In this document: positions 15,474-24,109 of the stretch, piece after piece
How positions within the stretch are numbered: the stretch's first letter is position 1
Layout of the letters: each line of letters starts with the position of its first letter
Origin: a virus
Taxonomy: Duplodnaviria > Caudoviricetes
Virus record (IMG/VR): IMGVR_UViG_3300025070_000055
Span: 1-50,150 of that record
DNA: 50,150 nucleotides
Strand: one strand, 5' to 3'
Notes under the pieces: generated by a model
What the model was told of the DNA's origin: nothing
Seen by the model: the letters and a program-made list of their open reading frames with translations, nothing else
The model's database searches: none
Translations under genes and position numbers: made by a program

Positions 15474-15767
15474 TTACCATTTAACTTTATGCGACCAATA
15501 TCTCGCACTTAGCTTACTAGGCTTAGAGTCTTGAGCATTGTGTCTTGCGTAATAACTCTTCTTACGAGCTTTGTCTTTTGCAGTTGTAGGACTCTTACCA
15601 GCACCCTTTACACCCTGCTGTCCGAATCTAATAAATTTATACGTGTCACCTTCTTTAGCCATTACGCAGTGTGACTTCTTAGGATGCTTAGGTGTCCTCT
15701 TAGGTTTGTTAACACCAGAGAGTCCTTCCTCTTTCATTTTAGTTTTAACTCTTTCAGGTACGCTCAT
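15474..15767 (-). CDS. Small basic protein
   Basis: IRFGQQG..RKKSYYARH..KLSARYWSHKVKW; likely start 15767. Confidence 0.7.
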   Translation of the reverse strand: MSVPERVKTKMKEEGLSGVNKPKRTPKHPKKSHCVMAKEGDTYKFIRFGQQGVKGAGKSPTTAKDKARKKSYYARHNAQDSKPSKLSARYWSHKVKW

Positions 15768-15966
15768 CGGTCCATCCTTCTTCACGCATAGCCCACTCTA
15801 CATGCTCTAACGTAAATTTACGACCGTAGTGGGCTTCCACTGCAGTCTTTACATAGAATACATCACTATGGGGAATATGTAAGTCTTCAAGATTACCATC
15901 TAATACGTGTCGGTAAAATTCTTCAAGAACATTATCTGTATATAGTTTTACTGATTTCTTTGCCAT
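15754..15966 (-). CDS. Hypothetical protein, first gene of late arm
   Basis: HIPHSDVFYV..AVEAHYG; overlaps next gene; start 15966 or 15972. Confidence 0.65.
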   Translation of the reverse strand: MAKKSVKLYTDNVLEEFYRHVLDGNLEDLHIPHSDVFYVKTAVEAHYGRKFTLEHVEWAMREEGWTDERT

Positions 15967-16179
15967 TGTCAATACTTTATTTGTACAAATATGAAAGTCC
16001 TCGCCTACAGCGATATTTCATTTACAAGTATACCTTCGGAGATATTCATTTAAGTGTATCACTGTACGTGTATACTTAAAGTATATTTATAGTTACTGTA
16101 TATTTAAGAGATTAGTATATGTGATTGTAAGTGTGTACTGTACGTGTATCACTTATAGTGACCCTACCCTAACTAACAT

Positions 16180-16212
16180 ATATAGTTTTACACATTATAT
16201 GATACATGTCAA
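16180..16212 (-). promoter_or_regulatory. Sigma70-like promoter for late arm
   Basis: TTGACA-N16-TAAAACTATAT; same architecture at 15940-15972. Confidence 0.6.
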
Positions 16213-16909
16213 CCCCTAATCGTACTATTGTAACATTATGTGATATACTGAAACATTCCGTTACCTAGTGATAGCACGTACTGTGTTATAATATAACGTA
16301 CCTACGAGTATGTAAACCACCTTCTGTGTATAGTGGTTAACAGTGCATTTTACTGATCTGTGTAGAAGTACATGTATATATAACGTATACCCCCCGCATG
16401 GCCCCTGCCCGCCCTCTCTCAACACGCAATTGCACGTATCATGCAACGTCATGACCTGTGTTGACAGCAATCAATGCCTCACCATCCACCGACATATCAA
16501 AGATATGAATGATATCAACAGCTTATTTGTCTACGACAACTGTTATGCAATCAGTTGCCATACTAAAGTATGAAAAAACACAGCACATTTTCACACCTTT
16601 GGTGTGTTGCAGTGCCGATGCTCATTATAACACCACCCACCATCTGTGATGGTCATGCGCATCATCACATAGCATATCCACGAGCCGCATGTAGCTCTGC
16701 CAATGGATCACCAACCGTCCAACATTGGACACTTCACATCTTTGATGTGGCAATTAAGCAACAGTTTCAGTGACCCAACCCAAACTTGGCTTGTGAGTTT
16801 AGCGCACGAACTTCACTACGTAGTTAGTGCTAACTACTACGTTGCAGTCATACGGGAAACGACAGGCGCAGAGGATCACGAGGCAACTTTTCTCTGGACA
16901 AACTCTATA

Positions 16910-16991
16910 CTATCTTCTAATAGTTTTATAAGAGAATTATATCTCACTTCTTGTGAGAGATATAAGTTCTCTTTTATAAAACAGAAGATAG
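16910..16991 (+). repeat. Long bulged inverted repeat upstream of first early gene
   Basis: CTATCTTCT..GTTTTATAAGAGAATTATATCTC pairs with GAGATATAAGTTCTCTTTTATAAAAC-AGAAGATAG. Confidence 0.85.
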
Positions 16992-17005
16992 ATAGGAAAA
17001 CGAAA

Positions 17006-17578
17006 ATGGCAAACTCAACAGCAACAACCGGTACTTCAATAGACGCTTTAGTGAAAGAGGGCAAAGCCCTTGGTTCAATTTGGCGTCAAGTGAACAGCCT
17101 CAAGCAAACCATCAAAGAGAATGGTTTTGATACAAGGTTGGGTAAATTGCTACAGCAATTGAAAGCGTCATCTACTGTAGACAGCGGTCAAATACCAACA
17201 CATGTTCTTCGAACACATGGTATTCAGCAGATTGATCGTCGCCGTCGTTCAGAAGCTTTGTGGTTCGTTGAAAACGAAAAAGAGTGTCGTGAGTTTATTG
17301 CCAATGGCAATTTCAAAGGTTCATCACTGACAGCTTTACAAGCTGCAATGCGTAAAGCTGCTAAAGCAGATGACGCTGAAACCACCGAAGGTGAAGTGTC
17401 CAATGTTGGACAGTCTGAGCCTACTGAACAGCCAAAGGCTGATGCACCTAAGCCTCGTATCACTCACAAGGTGATGGTGAATACCATCCTTGCTCAAGCT
17501 GAACTCAATGGCTTGGATCTTGAAAAGATCATTGAAGATCTGATGGCTGCTGTTCCTTCACAGCAAGTGGCAGCATGA
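17006..17578 (+). CDS. First early protein, putative helical DNA-binding protein
   Basis: Likely start MANSTAT at 17006 (AGGA RBS), not 16703; LGKLLQQLK..IDRRRRSEALWF. Confidence 0.75.
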   Translation: MANSTATTGTSIDALVKEGKALGSIWRQVNSLKQTIKENGFDTRLGKLLQQLKASSTVDSGQIPTHVLRTHGIQQIDRRRRSEALWFVENEKECREFIANGNFKGSSLTALQAAMRKAAKADDAETTEGEVSNVGQSEPTEQPKADAPKPRITHKVMVNTILAQAELNGLDLEKIIEDLMAAVPSQQVAA

Positions 17579-17775
17579 GGTACAAAGTACCTAACACCAA
17601 AGCCAGCGTTGAGCAATCACAGCTTGACGCTGCTATGGCACAGTTCTGCGAACTCGCAGACGATATGAACCGTCCAACATTGGACACTTTGATTGCTAAC
17701 ACATTAACTCCTAAAGAGTTAAAGAAACGTGAACCAACACTTATCTACGATAGTGGATGGAAGGATGCATCATGA
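17575..17775 (+). CDS. Hypothetical early protein
   Basis: 66 aa, ATGA overlaps at both ends. Confidence 0.65.
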   Translation: MRYKVPNTKASVEQSQLDAAMAQFCELADDMNRPTLDTLIANTLTPKELKKREPTLIYDSGWKDAS

Positions 17776-17972
17776 ATTACTCTGTAATTGTATTAAATGC
17801 TGATGGTGAAACCATCTTTGAAACCAAACCATATGATGGTGACTGTGAACTGGCTGGGAAAGCTATGGGCAGATGCGCTGACAGATGGGAAAAACGTGGC
17901 TACGAAGTAGAGTTTCGTGAAACAAAAGACGCTGCTGTGGATTTACATTTGCATGGGTGGCACAATGATTAA
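17772..17972 (+). CDS. Hypothetical early protein
   Basis: AAGGA RBS; ATGA coupling. Confidence 0.6.
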   Translation: MNYSVIVLNADGETIFETKPYDGDCELAGKAMGRCADRWEKRGYEVEFRETKDAAVDLHLHGWHND

Positions 17973-18135
17973 AATCATTCTCGCCATTGCTTGGTCTGTA
18001 ATACTTGTATTACTTACCTATTTGACCATTGCTGTTGTGTCACTCAATGGTCACTTGCACATACTCATTGGCATTGCGGTTCCCGTTGCAATGTTGGGGT
18101 TTATCACAATTTGTGAAAGGCCGCTTGACAAGTAG
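17965..18135 (+). CDS. Small two-TM membrane protein
   Basis: Two hydrophobic stretches; overlaps upstream stop. Confidence 0.55.
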   Translation: MIKIILAIAWSVILVLLTYLTIAVVSLNGHLHILIGIAVPVAMLGFITICERPLDK

Positions 18136-18200
18136 TATTACATAGTTATATAAACACTTGATACTTTAGTGAAAGTGTTATATAACATATGTATAATACT
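18134..18200 (+). repeat. Long bulged inverted repeat overlapping a possible promoter
   Basis: AGTATTACATAGTTATATAAACACTT pairs with AAGTGTTATATAACATATGTATAATACT; TTGACA at 18125. Confidence 0.75.
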
Positions 18201-18249
18201 AAAGATAACTGAAACCGTCCAATGTTGGACACTTTAAACGGAGTTTACT

Positions 18250-18513
18250 ATGTTCTATCAAGATCTCTGCCAAACATACTCAGATGTATACAAAGACTTT
18301 CATGGTGTACGTCCACCATCAGGCCATAACATGTCCGTTGTAGAGTTGCTAGAGCAAATTGATATGTACCAAAAGTACATAGAAGAAGATCTAGCACAAG
18401 AACGTGCCATTGAGGATGCAAGCATCAATGCTTGTATGGATCATGGTGCTCCTGACATAGACACTGCCATGCGGTGGCTTGAACAAGCTAACATCCATGC
18501 TCAATGGGTGTAA
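18250..18513 (+). CDS. Hypothetical early protein
   Basis: 87 aa; YSDVYKDFHGVRP motif; GGAG RBS. Confidence 0.75.
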   Translation: MFYQDLCQTYSDVYKDFHGVRPPSGHNMSVVELLEQIDMYQKYIEEDLAQERAIEDASINACMDHGAPDIDTAMRWLEQANIHAQWV

Positions 18514-18620
18514 GCAGATATAAGTACACTTGGAAGTTATATTTAACTTTCACTATACATAATCAATGGTGTGGAGATAGGCCGTCCAGTCTACAACCCA
18601 AGTGTATTTTTATCTGCTTA
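18511..18620 (+). ncRNA. Candidate structured RNA (multibranch stem-loop)
   Basis: 23-bp closing stem 18511-18533/18598-18620 with 2 differences, enclosing three small hairpins. Confidence 0.4.
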
Positions 18621-18663
18621 ACTGAAACCGTCCAATGTTGGACACTTTTACGGAGTAACCGTT

Positions 18664-19293
18664 ATGACTAAACCTGCAGTACACATTTCAACCATGACAG
18701 GCAAGCTGGATGGATTTCGTGCCATCAGCACAAACACTCGTACAAATACATATTGCCTTGAGCAACATGAACGTGCAGTAGAGCACAAGACTGACAATAT
18801 TTGTGGTGATTGCTATAGCCATGCTATGCTCAAGGGCTATCGTAAAAACATGGCTCCTGCCTTACAACGTAACAGTGATTTGTTGGCTACCCGTCCATTG
18901 GAACCGTATGAAATACCACGCATTAATGATGCAGTATTTCGTTTCAATGCTCATGGTGAATTGATCAACATGCAGCATATGGAAAACCTTATGGCTATTG
19001 TCCTTGACAATCCTTGGTGCACATTCGCCCTATGGACGAAACGTGTGGACCTAGTATTCCGTTGGCTACGTAACAATGCCAAGCCATCCAATTTGAATTT
19101 GATTTACTCAAATCCTAAGAAGTCGCATATCATGTCAAAGCCACCAAAACATTTTGACAAGACGTTCAACAACGTGCTAGAACATGAGCATGTAGATCAA
19201 CAAAACTGCACTGGGCAGAAGTGCAAAGACTGTCGTATCTGCTACACTATGAACGACATATTCACCATTGTAGAGAAGGTTAAAAAGTATTAA
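18664..19293 (+). CDS. Gp88-like Cys-rich protein (radical-SAM-like fold suspected)
   Basis: ICGDCY, FRFNAHGEL, FALWTKR, CTGQKCKDCRICY. Confidence 0.65.
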   Translation: MTKPAVHISTMTGKLDGFRAISTNTRTNTYCLEQHERAVEHKTDNICGDCYSHAMLKGYRKNMAPALQRNSDLLATRPLEPYEIPRINDAVFRFNAHGELINMQHMENLMAIVLDNPWCTFALWTKRVDLVFRWLRNNAKPSNLNLIYSNPKKSHIMSKPPKHFDKTFNNVLEHEHVDQQNCTGQKCKDCRICYTMNDIFTIVEKVKKY

Positions 19294-19457
19294 TGAAGAA
19301 ATCTGTAACATACCGAAACCCTGTGGCAAAGGCTATGTTGCAGGAGCGTAAATCACCACAAGTCGTGCCGCCTAAGAAAGGTGGCAAGGCTAAACGCAAC
19401 CGAAGAAAGGACAATCTCAATGCGATACGAGATGCAAAACTTTATCAAGATGACTAA
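19293..19457 (+). CDS. 54-aa basic protein, ArfA-like pattern (not in ORF track)
   Basis: MKKSVTYRNPVAKAMLQERKSPQVVPPKKGGKAKRNRRKDNLNAIRDAKLYQDD; TAATG coupling. Confidence 0.6.
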   Translation: MKKSVTYRNPVAKAMLQERKSPQVVPPKKGGKAKRNRRKDNLNAIRDAKLYQDD

Positions 19458-19578
19458 ACGAAAACCGTCCAATGTTGGACAGTCTGGCGACAGACAAAAA
19501 TCTACTCGTGATGAGTGGAAACGTGCTCGTAAAATTGCACGTCAAACTAAACTTAACCTTCGTAAAAAAGTAGCATAG
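19420..19578 (+). CDS. Small basic hypothetical protein
   Basis: Likely start 19420 (AAGGA RBS); contains a palindrome copy encoding SNVGQS. Confidence 0.55.
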   Translation: MRYEMQNFIKMTKRKPSNVGQSGDRQKSTRDEWKRARKIARQTKLNLRKKVA

Positions 19579-19589
19579 GAGCTAACACA

Positions 19590-19928
19590 ATGACAAACTC
19601 AAACGTAAATGCACCCGTAGTAAAAACTTCTCACCCAGAATTGTATGCAGAGCATACGTTCCACATGAGCAAAGCACGTAAGTATACCTACAACTACGTG
19701 GTAATTGACGAAGTTATTCGTGAGCTTTGGGGCGAAATGACTATGGAAGAAATTGCAGAAGCAATGAATGAGTACCCCAACCGTATCAAATATCGTGTGA
19801 GAGTTCTCAAAGAGCTTGGTGTAATCAAAAACAAATACAACATGGAACGTGCCAACCTTATGCGGCAGCGTAAAGAGGCAGCTACATGGTTGAAAGAGAT
19901 TGACGCAGAGCTTGCGAAAGTAGGCTAA
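19590..19928 (+). CDS. HTH DNA-binding protein
   Basis: MTMEEIAEAMNEYPNRIKYRVRVLKELGVI winged-HTH pattern; AGGAG RBS. Confidence 0.7.
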   Translation: MTNSNVNAPVVKTSHPELYAEHTFHMSKARKYTYNYVVIDEVIRELWGEMTMEEIAEAMNEYPNRIKYRVRVLKELGVIKNKYNMERANLMRQRKEAATWLKEIDAELAKVG

Positions 19929-20113
19929 TGCTCTACCTATTGTTCACACCTTTCGCTGGCTACTTTGCTATGCTAATTACTATTGTAATCATGCACAGCG
20001 TAGGCTATGACGTGAGAGGTGTGGACACCTTCACTATCTGGTGTGTATACATTCAGATATACGTATACTTATTTGTGATAACAAAACTGAAAGGTAAAAC
20101 CGATGAGAGTTGA
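19928..20113 (+). CDS. Small membrane protein
   Basis: Two hydrophobic segments; TAATG coupling. Confidence 0.55.
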   Translation: MLYLLFTPFAGYFAMLITIVIMHSVGYDVRGVDTFTIWCVYIQIYVYLFVITKLKGKTDES

Positions 20114-20474
20114 AGTATACTTCAATCTACATAAGAAAACATTCTCTGTTCGTTCATGTGAGACAGGTAGAGTTATACATCACACTGACGAAATACACAT
20201 TGTAAACCCTGAGTTTGTAGTGCGTCAGTCAGGGCGTAACCGTGTGCTCAGTGAGGGCAGGAAGAATGTTCATGCCTTTGTGCGAGGTAATTGCCCTTTT
20301 TACCGTCTTAATCCAAGGAACGCAACATTGGACACGATAACCTACAATCCATACAAGTATGTATCTTTTGTTGACAAGCAGACAGAAGAACCTGTATACG
20401 AAGCAAGTCGGGCATGGCTAACTGTGACCGACAAGATACCAACAATACAAGCAGAAGGAGTACAATATGACTAA
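20103..20474 (+). CDS. Hypothetical phage protein
   Basis: VYFNLHKKTFSV, EGRKNVHAFV and ITYNPYK motifs common in phage early genes. Confidence 0.75.
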   Translation: MRVEVYFNLHKKTFSVRSCETGRVIHHTDEIHIVNPEFVVRQSGRNRVLSEGRKNVHAFVRGNCPFYRLNPRNATLDTITYNPYKYVSFVDKQTEEPVYEASRAWLTVTDKIPTIQAEGVQYD

Positions 20475-20739
20475 GCTAAAAACAAAACTAACTCGTGACG
20501 AAGTACAGAAACTATGTGACTTGTACAACGCAATGGATAGCATCCTAGATGGCGCAGGTGAAACGTTTGACGTTAGCCTAAGTGATCTACATAGCTTGCG
20601 TAATGAGGCATGGAAGCTACGTGGCATGTTTGAGTTCAGAAGTCAGAAGCATGACGAAGATCCAAACAGACCTGCACACTGGATGCCGCAGGTATTACCT
20701 GACGATGATCGTGCATGGTATTACAATGCCGAGCATTAA
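20467..20739 (+). CDS. Hypothetical protein
   Basis: AAGGAG RBS; 90 aa. Confidence 0.65.
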   Translation: MTKLKTKLTRDEVQKLCDLYNAMDSILDGAGETFDVSLSDLHSLRNEAWKLRGMFEFRSQKHDEDPNRPAHWMPQVLPDDDRAWYYNAEH

Positions 20740-22738: not shown

Positions 22739-22992
22739 TGCGTATGTCAAGTAATGATTGGTGGGAGTATCTCAAGTGGGCTTCTTCCCACCACCTTACG
22801 GAAACATTTCCAGATGCGGTTTTATCTGACTCAGAAACTGATGAGTATGAAATGCATGAGGAACGTTTAACATGGATAGATCTTCATGTTACAGAACGTA
22901 ACGAAAACAGGGATAGAGATGATATTTTTGATGAGATACATGTGCTTGCTGTAAGCGCATATGAATTGGTAAAGGAAAAACTTAATGCCTAA
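22738..22992 (+). CDS. Acidic hypothetical protein
   Basis: 84 aa, coupled to both neighbours. Confidence 0.6.
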   Translation: MRMSSNDWWEYLKWASSHHLTETFPDAVLSDSETDEYEMHEERLTWIDLHVTERNENRDRDDIFDEIHVLAVSAYELVKEKLNA

Positions 22993-24109
22993 ACTACCAC
23001 GCTATGTACAAGAACGAGCTTCACCCTCTGGGGTGATCTCATACCGCTTTAACCCGCCACAGAACCTTGTTGATGAGGGTGTGGTCAAACGTGAGGAATA
23101 TGGTACAGACTTAAAACAAGTACGCAAGATTGTTCGTGATCACAATAAGGCGATTGATACGTGGCGTGAAGAACAATCACAGATTGTACGAATAAAGTCT
23201 AGCAGCAAGGTTACTGATCTCATTAACTATTACTATATGTCTAATGATTTCAATGCGTTACGTCATACAACTAAGGTTGACTACAGGTACTTTCTGACTG
23301 TGCTGCACCAGACTATGGGGTGGCGTAAGTATGAACACGTTACCTCTAAGGTTGCAAAGCAAGCATATGAAGAGTGGGTCAAACGTGGCATCAGTTTCGC
23401 TAATCATGCGGCAACATGTGCCAGTAGGGTGTACAACTACGCAATACAAATGGAGCATACCACGTACAATCCTTGGGCAAACATTAAGCGTAAGTCACCA
23501 CAACAGCGTAAGGTAGTGTGGACACATGATGATGTTGTCAAGTTTCTTGACGTAGCATACAGTGACTTTGAGTATCGTAACATTGGCCTGATTGTTCAGA
23601 TGGCATACGAGTGGTGCCAGCGACTAGGTGACATGCGTATGTTGACGTGGGATAACATTGACTTTCGTACTCAGAAGCTCACACTTGAGCAGAGTAAACG
23701 TAGGGCTGACGTAGAGCTACCAATATCAGAGGATCTATTGCACATGTTGAATGAACAGCGTACCGACTTTGGTTTTCAAGACTACGTTGCCCCACATCCT
23801 AGACCTACGGATGGTTCGTATAACCCCTATGCTATGGAGAGACTATCCAAAGTGGGTAGAAGGGTAATGCGTCTAGCTAAACTACCCGAAGAGTTACGTC
23901 TTATGGACTTACGTAGGACAGGTGTAACACAGATGGTGGATGCTGGTGTACCATTGCCCCAAGTTATGGCAGTGACAGGACACAATCATGTGTCTTCTGT
24001 GAAACCATATATGAAACATACTTACACAAGTGCAAATAGTGCCTTGACACAGAGAAACGTAAGTGTATCCTTGAGTGGAGCGAACAGCATAGAAAGTGAT
24101 ACAGCATGA
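22985..24109 (+). CDS. int: Tyrosine recombinase / integrase
   Basis: CQRLGD (R), QSK (K), MDLRRT, VTGH, KPY (catalytic Y). Confidence 0.9.
   Translation: MPKLPRYVQERASPSGVISYRFNPPQNLVDEGVVKREEYGTDLKQVRKIVRDHNKAIDTWREEQSQIVRIKSSSKVTDLINYYYMSNDFNALRHTTKVDYRYFLTVLHQTMGWRKYEHVTSKVAKQAYEEWVKRGISFANHAATCASRVYNYAIQMEHTTYNPWANIKRKSPQQRKVVWTHDDVVKFLDVAYSDFEYRNIGLIVQMAYEWCQRLGDMRMLTWDNIDFRTQKLTLEQSKRRADVELPISEDLLHMLNEQRTDFGFQDYVAPHPRPTDGSYNPYAMERLSKVGRRVMRLAKLPEELRLMDLRRTGVTQMVDAGVPLPQVMAVTGHNHVSSVKPYMKHTYTSANSALTQRNVSVSLSGANSIESDTA

Follow-up and report, generated by a model that had tools for sequence, protein, structure and literature searches.

The DNA analyzed here, referred to below as the window, is an entire IMG/VR virus record (IMGVR_UViG_3300025070_000055; 50,150 bp; estimated completeness, 91%), and our subject is a palindrome, GTCCAA-NN-TTGGAC, that occurs in six perfect copies between positions 16717 and 19480 of its early region. 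A PHROG scan of 61 open reading frames (ORFs) gave a podovirus layout in which a leftward and a rightward arm diverge from a noncoding control region (Table 1). The rightward arm encodes an integrase, a primase, a DnaB-like helicase, a family A DNA polymerase, a ribonucleotide reductase, and MazG. By DNA polymerase identity, the nearest isolates are the Roseobacter phages CRP-345 (79%) and CRP-1 (77%) and Puniceispirillum phage HMO-2011 (68%); the host of HMO-2011 belongs to SAR116 and that of CRP-1 to the Roseobacter RCA lineage. The available part of PMC6918029 places all three isolates in subgroup I of the HMO-2011-type phages, which rank among the most abundant viral groups in the ocean according to the available parts of PMC9038755 and PMC6918029.

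TABLE 1 Palindromic sites and other features of the window
Feature	Position	Strand	Description
Leftward arm	1-16 kb and 36.6-50 kb		Structural and lysis genes (PHROG scan)
Control region	15973-17005		~1 kb, noncoding, between the divergent arms
Rightward arm	17-36.6 kb		Early and replication genes (PHROG scan)
Site 1, class a	16717..16730		Intergenic, ~290 bp upstream of the first early gene, in the noncoding control region
gp01-like gene	17006..17578	+	190 aa, candidate reader; helical N-domain, acidic linker, small C-terminal helical domain
Site 2, class b	17398..17411	+	Inside the 190-aa ORF 17006-17578, in the variable linker; reads SNVG
Site 3, class c	17672..17685	+	Inside the 66-aa ORF 17575-17775, in another frame; reads PTLD
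Promoter-like element	18144..18197	+	Immediately upstream of unit 4; GTGAAA-17-TATAAT, 10/12 score as a consensus match
Leader unit 4	18206..18247	+	Around site 4; first 30 nt identical to 18619-18648
Site 4, leader type	18217..18230	+	Intergenic, 19 nt before the ATG of ORF 18250-18513
Leader unit 5	18619..18660	+	Around site 5
Site 5, leader type	18630..18643	+	Intergenic, 20 nt before the ATG of the GP88-family ORF
GP88-family protein	18664-19293		Pfam PF17338, E 1.3e-07; cassette found in 1/47 related loci, in another place
Two basic ORFs	19293..19578	+	54 aa and 52 aa; different frames, 38-nt overlap
Site 6, class e	19467..19480	+	Inside the 52-aa basic ORF 19420-19578; reads SNVG
Tyrosine integrase	22985..24109	+	Considered as an actor on the sites, not supported

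The six copies compare with an expected count of 0.00 in 100 dinucleotide shuffles, and no further copy with up to two mismatches was present in the whole 50,150-bp record. These counts bear out a preliminary description of this DNA, made from the sequence alone, which had reported six perfect copies and none elsewhere, three of them intergenic and three inside ORFs on different peptide readings. That description was also right about the combinations of flanks and centers (aacc/CA/actt and aacc/TG/actt twice each and aagt/TG/agtc and aacc/TG/agtc once each), about the position of the integrase gene 3.5 kb downstream of the array, and about a 21-bp perfect inverted repeat formed by 16717-16737 and 17391-17411, for which a repeat search gives 24-nt arms that are 96% complementary. 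The symmetry of the site is 6+2+6: the flanks at positions ±1 to 2 are asymmetric and those at ±3 to 5 are again symmetric (AAA/TTT). Site 4 lies just 5' of a Shine-Dalgarno sequence and 3' of the promoter-like element, and the ortholog of site 1 is found in relatives at about -280, where its orientation and center flip from one relative to another.

The array is a family trait with fixed positions, more general than the preliminary description could show. We retrieved 47 viral loci with the product of 17006-17578 (gp01-like) and a second set of 80 loci with a DUF932 protein; some contigs are common to both sets, so not all loci are independent. The exact motif occurs in 44 of the 47 loci (1 to 9 perfect copies each, 207 in total), and the remaining three (L047 to L049) carry GTCCGA-NN-TCGGAC six times in the same relative places. 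When both forms are counted, the window and the 47 loci together have 231 perfect sites. Relative to the gp01 start, every one of these falls between -443 and +4811, and there is none in 197,093 bp on the late-gene side and none in 41,797 bp farther downstream; a site with one mismatch occurs a single time in these 436,385 bp. The motif scan of related genomes that the preliminary description had proposed thus found the positional clustering retained across relatives.

Among 425 GTCC-N6-GGAC 14-mers from 127 loci, the inner pairs fall into three classes and no other: AA..TT (386 sites, the A type), GA..TC (30, the G type), and GA..TT (9, here called hybrids). The stem sequence is invariant and the center is variable (TG, CA, CG, TA, or GG), and the center can flip at orthologous places, for example between HMO-2011 site 61 and L174. 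All relatives keep classes a, b, c, and e in one order and orientation. CRP-1 has five perfect copies at orthologous places and CRP-345 has six, while HMO-2011 has five copies of a related site, TA-GTCCG-NNNN-CGGAC-TA. In the whole records of CRP-2 and CRP-207, GTCC-N6-GGAC occurs at a chance level of 0 or 1, i.e., there is no array. In genome contigs of 185,579 species, an extended 20-base form of the site had no match, and a gp01 profile search of genome contigs matched 113 pattern stretches, none of which was a relative. Arrays of related palindromes were also seen on a 64-kb viral contig (L166/L167) and a 42-kb viral contig (L151 to L153), in the forms AGTA-GTCCG-NNNN-CGGAC-TACT, with a free center, and GTCCGA-GT/AC-TCGGAC. 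No gp01-like gene was detected in the parts of these contigs that were examined, and the neighboring ORFs had no PHROG match.

What selection preserves is the nucleic acid and not the peptide, and within a genome the copies change in concert. When gp01 sequences are aligned, the site forms the sole invariant island (S132, V134, and G135) in an otherwise variable linker. In L047 to L049, the same two substitutions appear in every copy, coding or not, changing SNVG to SDVG in both proteins that carry the peptide; because the coding copies switch in step with the noncoding ones, it is the DNA that is under selection, as the preliminary description had suggested. The L030 lineage has AAAC...AAT flanks in every copy, which entails a P-to-T replacement and a synonymous CAG-to-CAA change in both proteins, and there are lineage-specific flanks elsewhere (CG...ACT in L041 to L043 and TAA...CTAA in L055). 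The HMO-2011 homologue of the 52-aa ORF lacks the insert. The array provides an example of a DNA signal forced into coding sequence, where it yields "passenger" peptides.

Leader-type copies are interspersed among the sites of classes a, b, c, and e. Forty-four of 143 unique site contexts lie 19 to 22 nt before a start codon (19 nt, n = 19; 20 nt, n = 15; 21 nt, n = 5; 22 nt, n = 2), and 39 of these 44 are at 19 to 21 nt. The consensus of the leader unit is tAAcTGAAACC-[site]-ACTTTaAa-GGAG, and a tally of the center gave T (86%) or C (14%) at the first base and G (98%) at the second. Hexamers resembling a -10 element precede many, not all, leader units by 18 to 21 nt. The promoter-like element upstream of unit 4 holds an inverted repeat of its own (14 nt; GTTATATAAACACTT / AAGTGTTATATAAC), has a fold z-score of -3.2, is 88 to 96% identical in phages whose genes are ~65 to 70% identical, and recurs twice in HMO-2011; it is probably the main early promoter plus a second operator.

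Terminator-like hairpins lie between early genes, and the 14-mer itself is not one of them, having a 5-bp stem, a 4-nt loop, no T run on the sense strand, and weak consensus matches. The folding of the leaders is unremarkable (z-scores of 0.15 and -0.99), and no Rfam family matched 15500-20500 at an E value of ≤1. Between ORF 18250-18513 and unit 5, we also observed a pair of 23-nt inverted-repeat arms (91% complementary) around 64 nt (18511-18620). This structure has a fold z-score of -5.8, and its 3' arm is kept upstream of leader units in several relatives.

Among the proteins encoded near the array, gp01-like is most likely the reader of the palindrome, a view that draws on co-occurrence and on structure prediction. 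In whole isolate records, the gene and the array go together: CRP-1, CRP-345, and HMO-2011 have both, and CRP-2 and CRP-207 have neither. Contigs resembling HMO-2011 encode a 23%-identical gp01 homologue adjoining their sites. In an AF2 model of gp01-like (pLDDT, 71.9), a disordered linker joins a helical N-domain to a C-domain of two helices. The protein was also modeled as a homodimer, with an ipSAE of 0.72 versus 0.00 for the best control, a partner pLDDT of at least 74, and 91% contact agreement between runs. Of proteins solved as pairs, 20 of 30 score this well, as does 1 of 23 solved as single chains. Such a pass supports binding but does not prove it. The modeled interface comprises residues 15 to 77 and 151 to 183 and leaves helices 78 to 125 free. 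When gp01-like was compared with 48,161 chains by the exhaustive aligner VIA, the top match, a weak one, was the DNA-binding domain of KorB with its operator (1r71_A; Z, 5.0; root mean square deviation, 3.4; 86 residues aligned), and Spo0J (Z, 3.4) and a second KorB entry (Z, 3.3) were also matched. The C-domain weakly resembles the N-terminal helices of an HU-family protein (E value, 0.63), and look-alikes in the Atlas were DUF3102 clusters (0.92; 150 shared features), which we treat as a lead only. Pfam and PHROG searches matched no ParB N-terminal (CTP-binding) domain in gp01-like and no ParA-type partner among the 61 window proteins.

We also considered a 112-aa helix-turn-helix protein (19590..19928, plus strand) as the binder and demoted it because it is absent from L109, L110, and HMO-2011, all of which bear arrays. 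This protein matches HTH_24 with an E value of 0.0021, below the cutoff; its AF2 model (pLDDT, 74.6) shows a helix-turn-helix and a long C-terminal helix, and the best Foldseek matches are Lrp/AsnC helix-turn-helix domains (E value, 0.36). The pair of basic 54- and 52-aa ORFs co-occurs with arrays and is conserved as a pair through to HMO-2011.

One residue of gp01-like follows the type of site. Within the conserved helix 108-123 (SLTALQAAMRK), position 109 is occupied by Thr wherever the genome carries A-type sites exclusively (38 of 38 unique gp01 sequences) and by Ser wherever G stands at site position 5 (12 of 12 sequences: L100, L120, three members of the L085 clade, and seven found through hybrid sites). 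On the gp01 tree, the residue and the site type need the same five changes, and L100 nests with A-type relatives of CRP-1 (support, 99/95) and is not sister to L120.

On balance, we lean toward a dispersed operator array that is read by a symmetric dimeric gp01-like product and controls early transcription. Rising levels of gp01-like would fill one site 5' of its own gene, one inside it, and those located between a promoter-like element and the ribosome-binding site of a following early gene. Occupancy, presumably of duplex DNA, would set or shut off early rightward transcription, with repression as the expected effect, much as KorB acts on its OB operators or a repressor on stoperators. The 30- to 40-nt repeated leader units that carry sites evolve in concert and would double as junctions at which early cassettes are swapped by repeat recombination.

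Several points weigh against this operator model. The predicted gp01 promoter is downstream of site 1, and all promoter calls are matches to a consensus, no commoner here than in shuffles. The Z value of the KorB match is under the caution line of the tool for helical proteins, Foldseek found no match to gp01-like (best E value, 0.23), the Pfam KorB family matches 1 of 17 gp01-like members (E value, 0.099), and no Pfam family reaches the cutoff. The residue 109 association is perfect but not formally significant: on well-supported branches, 3 of 3 contrasts agree (5 on all branches; sign test, P = 0.25). Seven of the 12 Ser109 sequences were ascertained by searching for hybrid sites, and gp01 is mosaic. 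Codon 109 is ~70 nt from the internal site, so that hitchhiking by recombination is possible. Genomes of the HMO-2011 group have identical sites, yet three of them have K and one has T at the aligned position, which implies that there is no simple residue-to-base code across groups. Lastly, the 23 unique hybrid sites among the matches listed (28 family loci, out of 369 loci among those matches, oriented by their genes) all place G on the 5' arm of the sense strand and T on its 3' arm, a one-sidedness not expected of a symmetric dimer bound to duplex DNA. Almost every hybrid is a copy of the same CG-centered 14-mer, and a single founder 14-mer spread by recombination among collinear genomes could mimic the bias.

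If the palindromes instead acted as hairpins on the sense strand, it would be explained why all intermediates between A-T and G-C are G·T(U) wobble pairs. The hairpin would most likely form in nascent early RNA, serving in nut/boxB-like antitermination or as a translational or processing operator ahead of the ribosome-binding site, and its reader would be gp01-like itself or the small arginine/lysine-rich 54- and 52-aa proteins; we think this unlikely, although it is the main rival of the operator model. The lone varying stem pair follows the path expected for RNA (A-U, G·U, and G-C, with no A·C among the matches listed), and the coding copies show the nonsynonymous A-to-G change and not the synonymous T-to-C change on the other arm. 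The fixed distance of leader-type sites from the start codon, their near-constant center bases, the two small basic ORFs that accompany the arrays (that of HMO-2011 included), and the terminator-like hairpins between early genes would suit such a role. Against it, a stem of just 5 bp would close a 4-nt loop, and the leaders fold no better than expected. Across the 425 sites, covariation is absent from five of the six stem pairs while the loop varies, the reverse of what is usual for a structural RNA; inversion of the center, seen at orthologous sites and in classes a and c, would alter the loop. No supported promoter precedes the region of site 1, there is no Rfam match, and the one-sidedness of the hybrids may come from a single founder 14-mer. 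That the palindromes are read as sense-strand hairpins of any kind, in nascent early RNA or extruded DNA, and not as ordinary duplex operators strikes us as distinctly unlikely. If it were so, early genes would be timed by a multicopy nut-like code for elongation control in abundant marine podoviruses, and the specificity of that code (A type, G type, or HMO type) would define incompatibility groups among coinfecting phages.

Other explanations seem weaker still. A parS-like centromere or condensation array, on which gp01-like loads to organize or segregate phage DNA, as in a carrier state, would fit the weak top fold matches (KorB and Spo0J) and the clustering of identical palindromes beside a divergent control region and partly in genes, including that of the binder; known parS sites also lie inside genes. 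We nevertheless judge it improbable, given that no ParA-type ATPase was found among the 61 scanned proteins, that gp01-like has 190 aa only and no ParB N-terminal domain, that the phage carries an integrase, and that many sites fall precisely between promoter-like elements and ribosome-binding sites. Less probable again is the binding of the box by a host regulator or nucleoid protein that the phage exploits. The GTCCG-N4-CGGAC cores with TA flanks on the 64-kb and 42-kb contigs, which show no gp01-like gene, would be in keeping with this, but cores and flanks switch in concert between close phages and track phage residue 109, the SAR116 phage HMO-2011 and the RCA phage CRP-1 each have their own version of the site, and the extended form is absent from the genome contigs of 185,579 species mentioned above. 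We give the least credence to hairpin-type promoters for an unrecognized phage or virion RNA polymerase, as in N4. Sites ~20 nt before start codons would suit very short leaders, G·T tolerance on the sense strand fits a DNA hairpin, and two large virion-module proteins (1166 and 957 aa) have no assigned family; however, sequence-based scans (PHROGs, Pfam, and a PDB search with the 1166-aa protein) gave no sign of an RNA polymerase, sigma-70-like elements precede many sites, and the three conserved in-gene copies would be odd promoters. That the 14-mers are targets through which the tyrosine integrase or another site-specific recombinase reshuffles early cassettes in an integron-like manner is hardly more credible. 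Variable small genes lie between the sites, homology junctions fall at repeated units, the GP88 cassette and its unit are relocated in L043, and a palindrome lies inside the integrase gene of the CRP-1 clade. Yet the order and orientation of the site classes are constant in all relatives, CRP-2 and CRP-207 have integrases (41 to 42% identity) and no array, and the integrase-internal copy stays A type in L100, whose array is G type, and is missing from the window integrase.

The geometry of the site is also unlike that of a recombinase target. Core sites of tyrosine recombinases have inverted arms of ~9 to 13 bp around an overlap of 6 to 8 bp. Reading the palindrome as two arms around a 6-bp asymmetric spacer, as the preliminary description had suggested, leaves arms of 4 bp, and the flanks outside the 14-mer are asymmetric at ±1 to 2. 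No dependable rearrangement joints were found in the assembled Logan contigs of four runs (two DNA and two RNA libraries): mapping revealed no position at which starts or ends of molecules accumulate, and the joints, with sides of just 21 to 55 nt, perhaps came from relatives or repeats. RNA-library contigs cover parts of the region, which does not demonstrate transcription. Of the two readings in the preliminary description, an operator or parS-like array for a phage protein is supported by positional conservation, concerted evolution, and the covariation of residue 109 in the product of 17006; the shuffling of early genes by the integrase is not, in view of the geometry, the integrases without arrays, and the lack of reliable joints in those contigs. 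The copy inside the integrase gene of one clade, GTCCAAGGTTGGAC (peptide LSKVGR), occurs in CRP-1 (6868), CRP-345 (7079), L100:10647, and ~20 other loci, and the window integrase encodes the same LSKVGR peptide with other codons and no palindrome.

Differences in cassettes at the units may be explained equally well by homologous exchange between the 30- to 40-nt repeats. Short unit matches that are 90 to 100% identical were found in phages that elsewhere align at 65 to 75% or cannot be aligned, and several boundaries of long matches fall within ~20 nt of a unit (L012 at 18648, L017 at 18247, and L043 starting at 18620). The GP88 gene and its unit are downstream of the 112-aa gene in L043 and upstream of it in the window. 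We speculate that the repeated leader units may drive the turnover of early genes. In the genome of L237:1649, five other sites are G·T hybrids with ACG...CC flanks, and the leader unit itself is of the standard AACC-GTCCAATGTTGGAC-ACTTT type, as though this cassette had been acquired from an A-type phage not long ago.

Among known systems, KorB and its OB operators on the IncP plasmid RK2 (ParB family) offer the closest parallels. OB occurs in ~12 identical copies, and Thr and Arg contacts outside the helix-turn-helix set the specificity of KorB. Both systems have many identical short palindromes (in the 13- to 16-bp range) spread over kilobases, inside genes as well as outside, some at promoters and some not; both have a dimeric reader, predicted in the case of the array, and gp01-like finds its best, though weak, structural match in the operator-bound KorB domain. 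The differences are that gp01-like has 190 aa, with no ParB N-terminal/CTPase domain detected, that the 61 scanned proteins include no recognized ParA/IncC or KorA partner, that the array belongs to a podovirus (lytic or temperate) and not to a plasmid, and that sequence similarity is insignificant. The stoperators of cluster A mycobacteriophages, which are bound by an L5 gp71-type repressor, extend beyond the promoter and are oriented with transcription, and their consensus coevolves with the repressor (available parts of PMC6550527 and PMC9283540). The lineage-specific variants of core and flanks described here, which track residue 109, resemble them in this respect. Stoperators, however, are asymmetric 13-bp sites that are read by a monomer and number 20 to 30 genome-wide, whereas the array is palindromic, with up to 9 copies in ~5 kb and a modeled dimer as its reader. 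The best-supported analogy is that the array would work like the KorB/OB system or the stoperator system while being a full member of neither class.

The leader units also recall the PeSL (promoter-early stem-loop) cassettes of T4-type phages, short, conserved composite regulatory motifs that flank variable early ORFs and act as exchange points between sequences that are otherwise unrelated (available parts of PMC4122927 and PMC2839356). Here, too, repeated units of 30 to 40 nt precede variable genes and mark homology junctions, but the phage family and the sequence differ. A PeSL unit contains an early promoter and a terminator stem-loop; in the array, promoter-like hexamers precede many but not all units, and the 14-mer is not itself terminator-like. 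The invariant 14-bp palindromic core also lies in three conserved genes and covaries with a phage protein; the in-gene copies and this covariation point to a trans-acting reader, beyond a role in recombination alone. In lambda nut, which has two sites, the boxB hairpin is read by the arginine-rich N protein. The array shares with it a short perfect inverted repeat in early leaders, small and very basic early proteins, and terminator-like hairpins, but it has up to 9 copies rather than two, its loop is variable and its stem invariant, no boxA was established, and no homology to N was found.

The available parts of PMC9038755 and PMC6918029 make no mention of a promoter, an inverted repeat, a palindrome, or a DNA repeat, and the original description of HMO-2011 was outside this coverage; a literature search on promoters in connection with SAR116 and HMO-2011 listed two papers, both on other phages. 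The array offers a first handle on gene control in an abundant group of ocean phages and puts forward a concrete regulatory code, made up of a 14-bp site, a protein that may read it, one residue of that protein that may set specificity, and naturally occurring specificity variants.

The DNA of the control region itself is kept in relatives. We examined ORF 16343-16573 as a conserved regulator and rejected it: it has tblastn matches in 40 loci, but the ORF is broken or variable in length among relatives, and the region is probably conserved noncoding DNA. A conserved GCTCTGCCAATGG box lies 5' of site 1, and 3' of the site is a small stem-loop whose arms differ between relatives while the pairing is maintained. 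Directly upstream of the gp01-like start codon is an imperfect palindrome with arms of ~40 nt (16903-16996), which, folded as DNA, has an energy of -22.1 kcal/mol and a z-score of -7.4 and was equaled by 0 of 200 shuffles.

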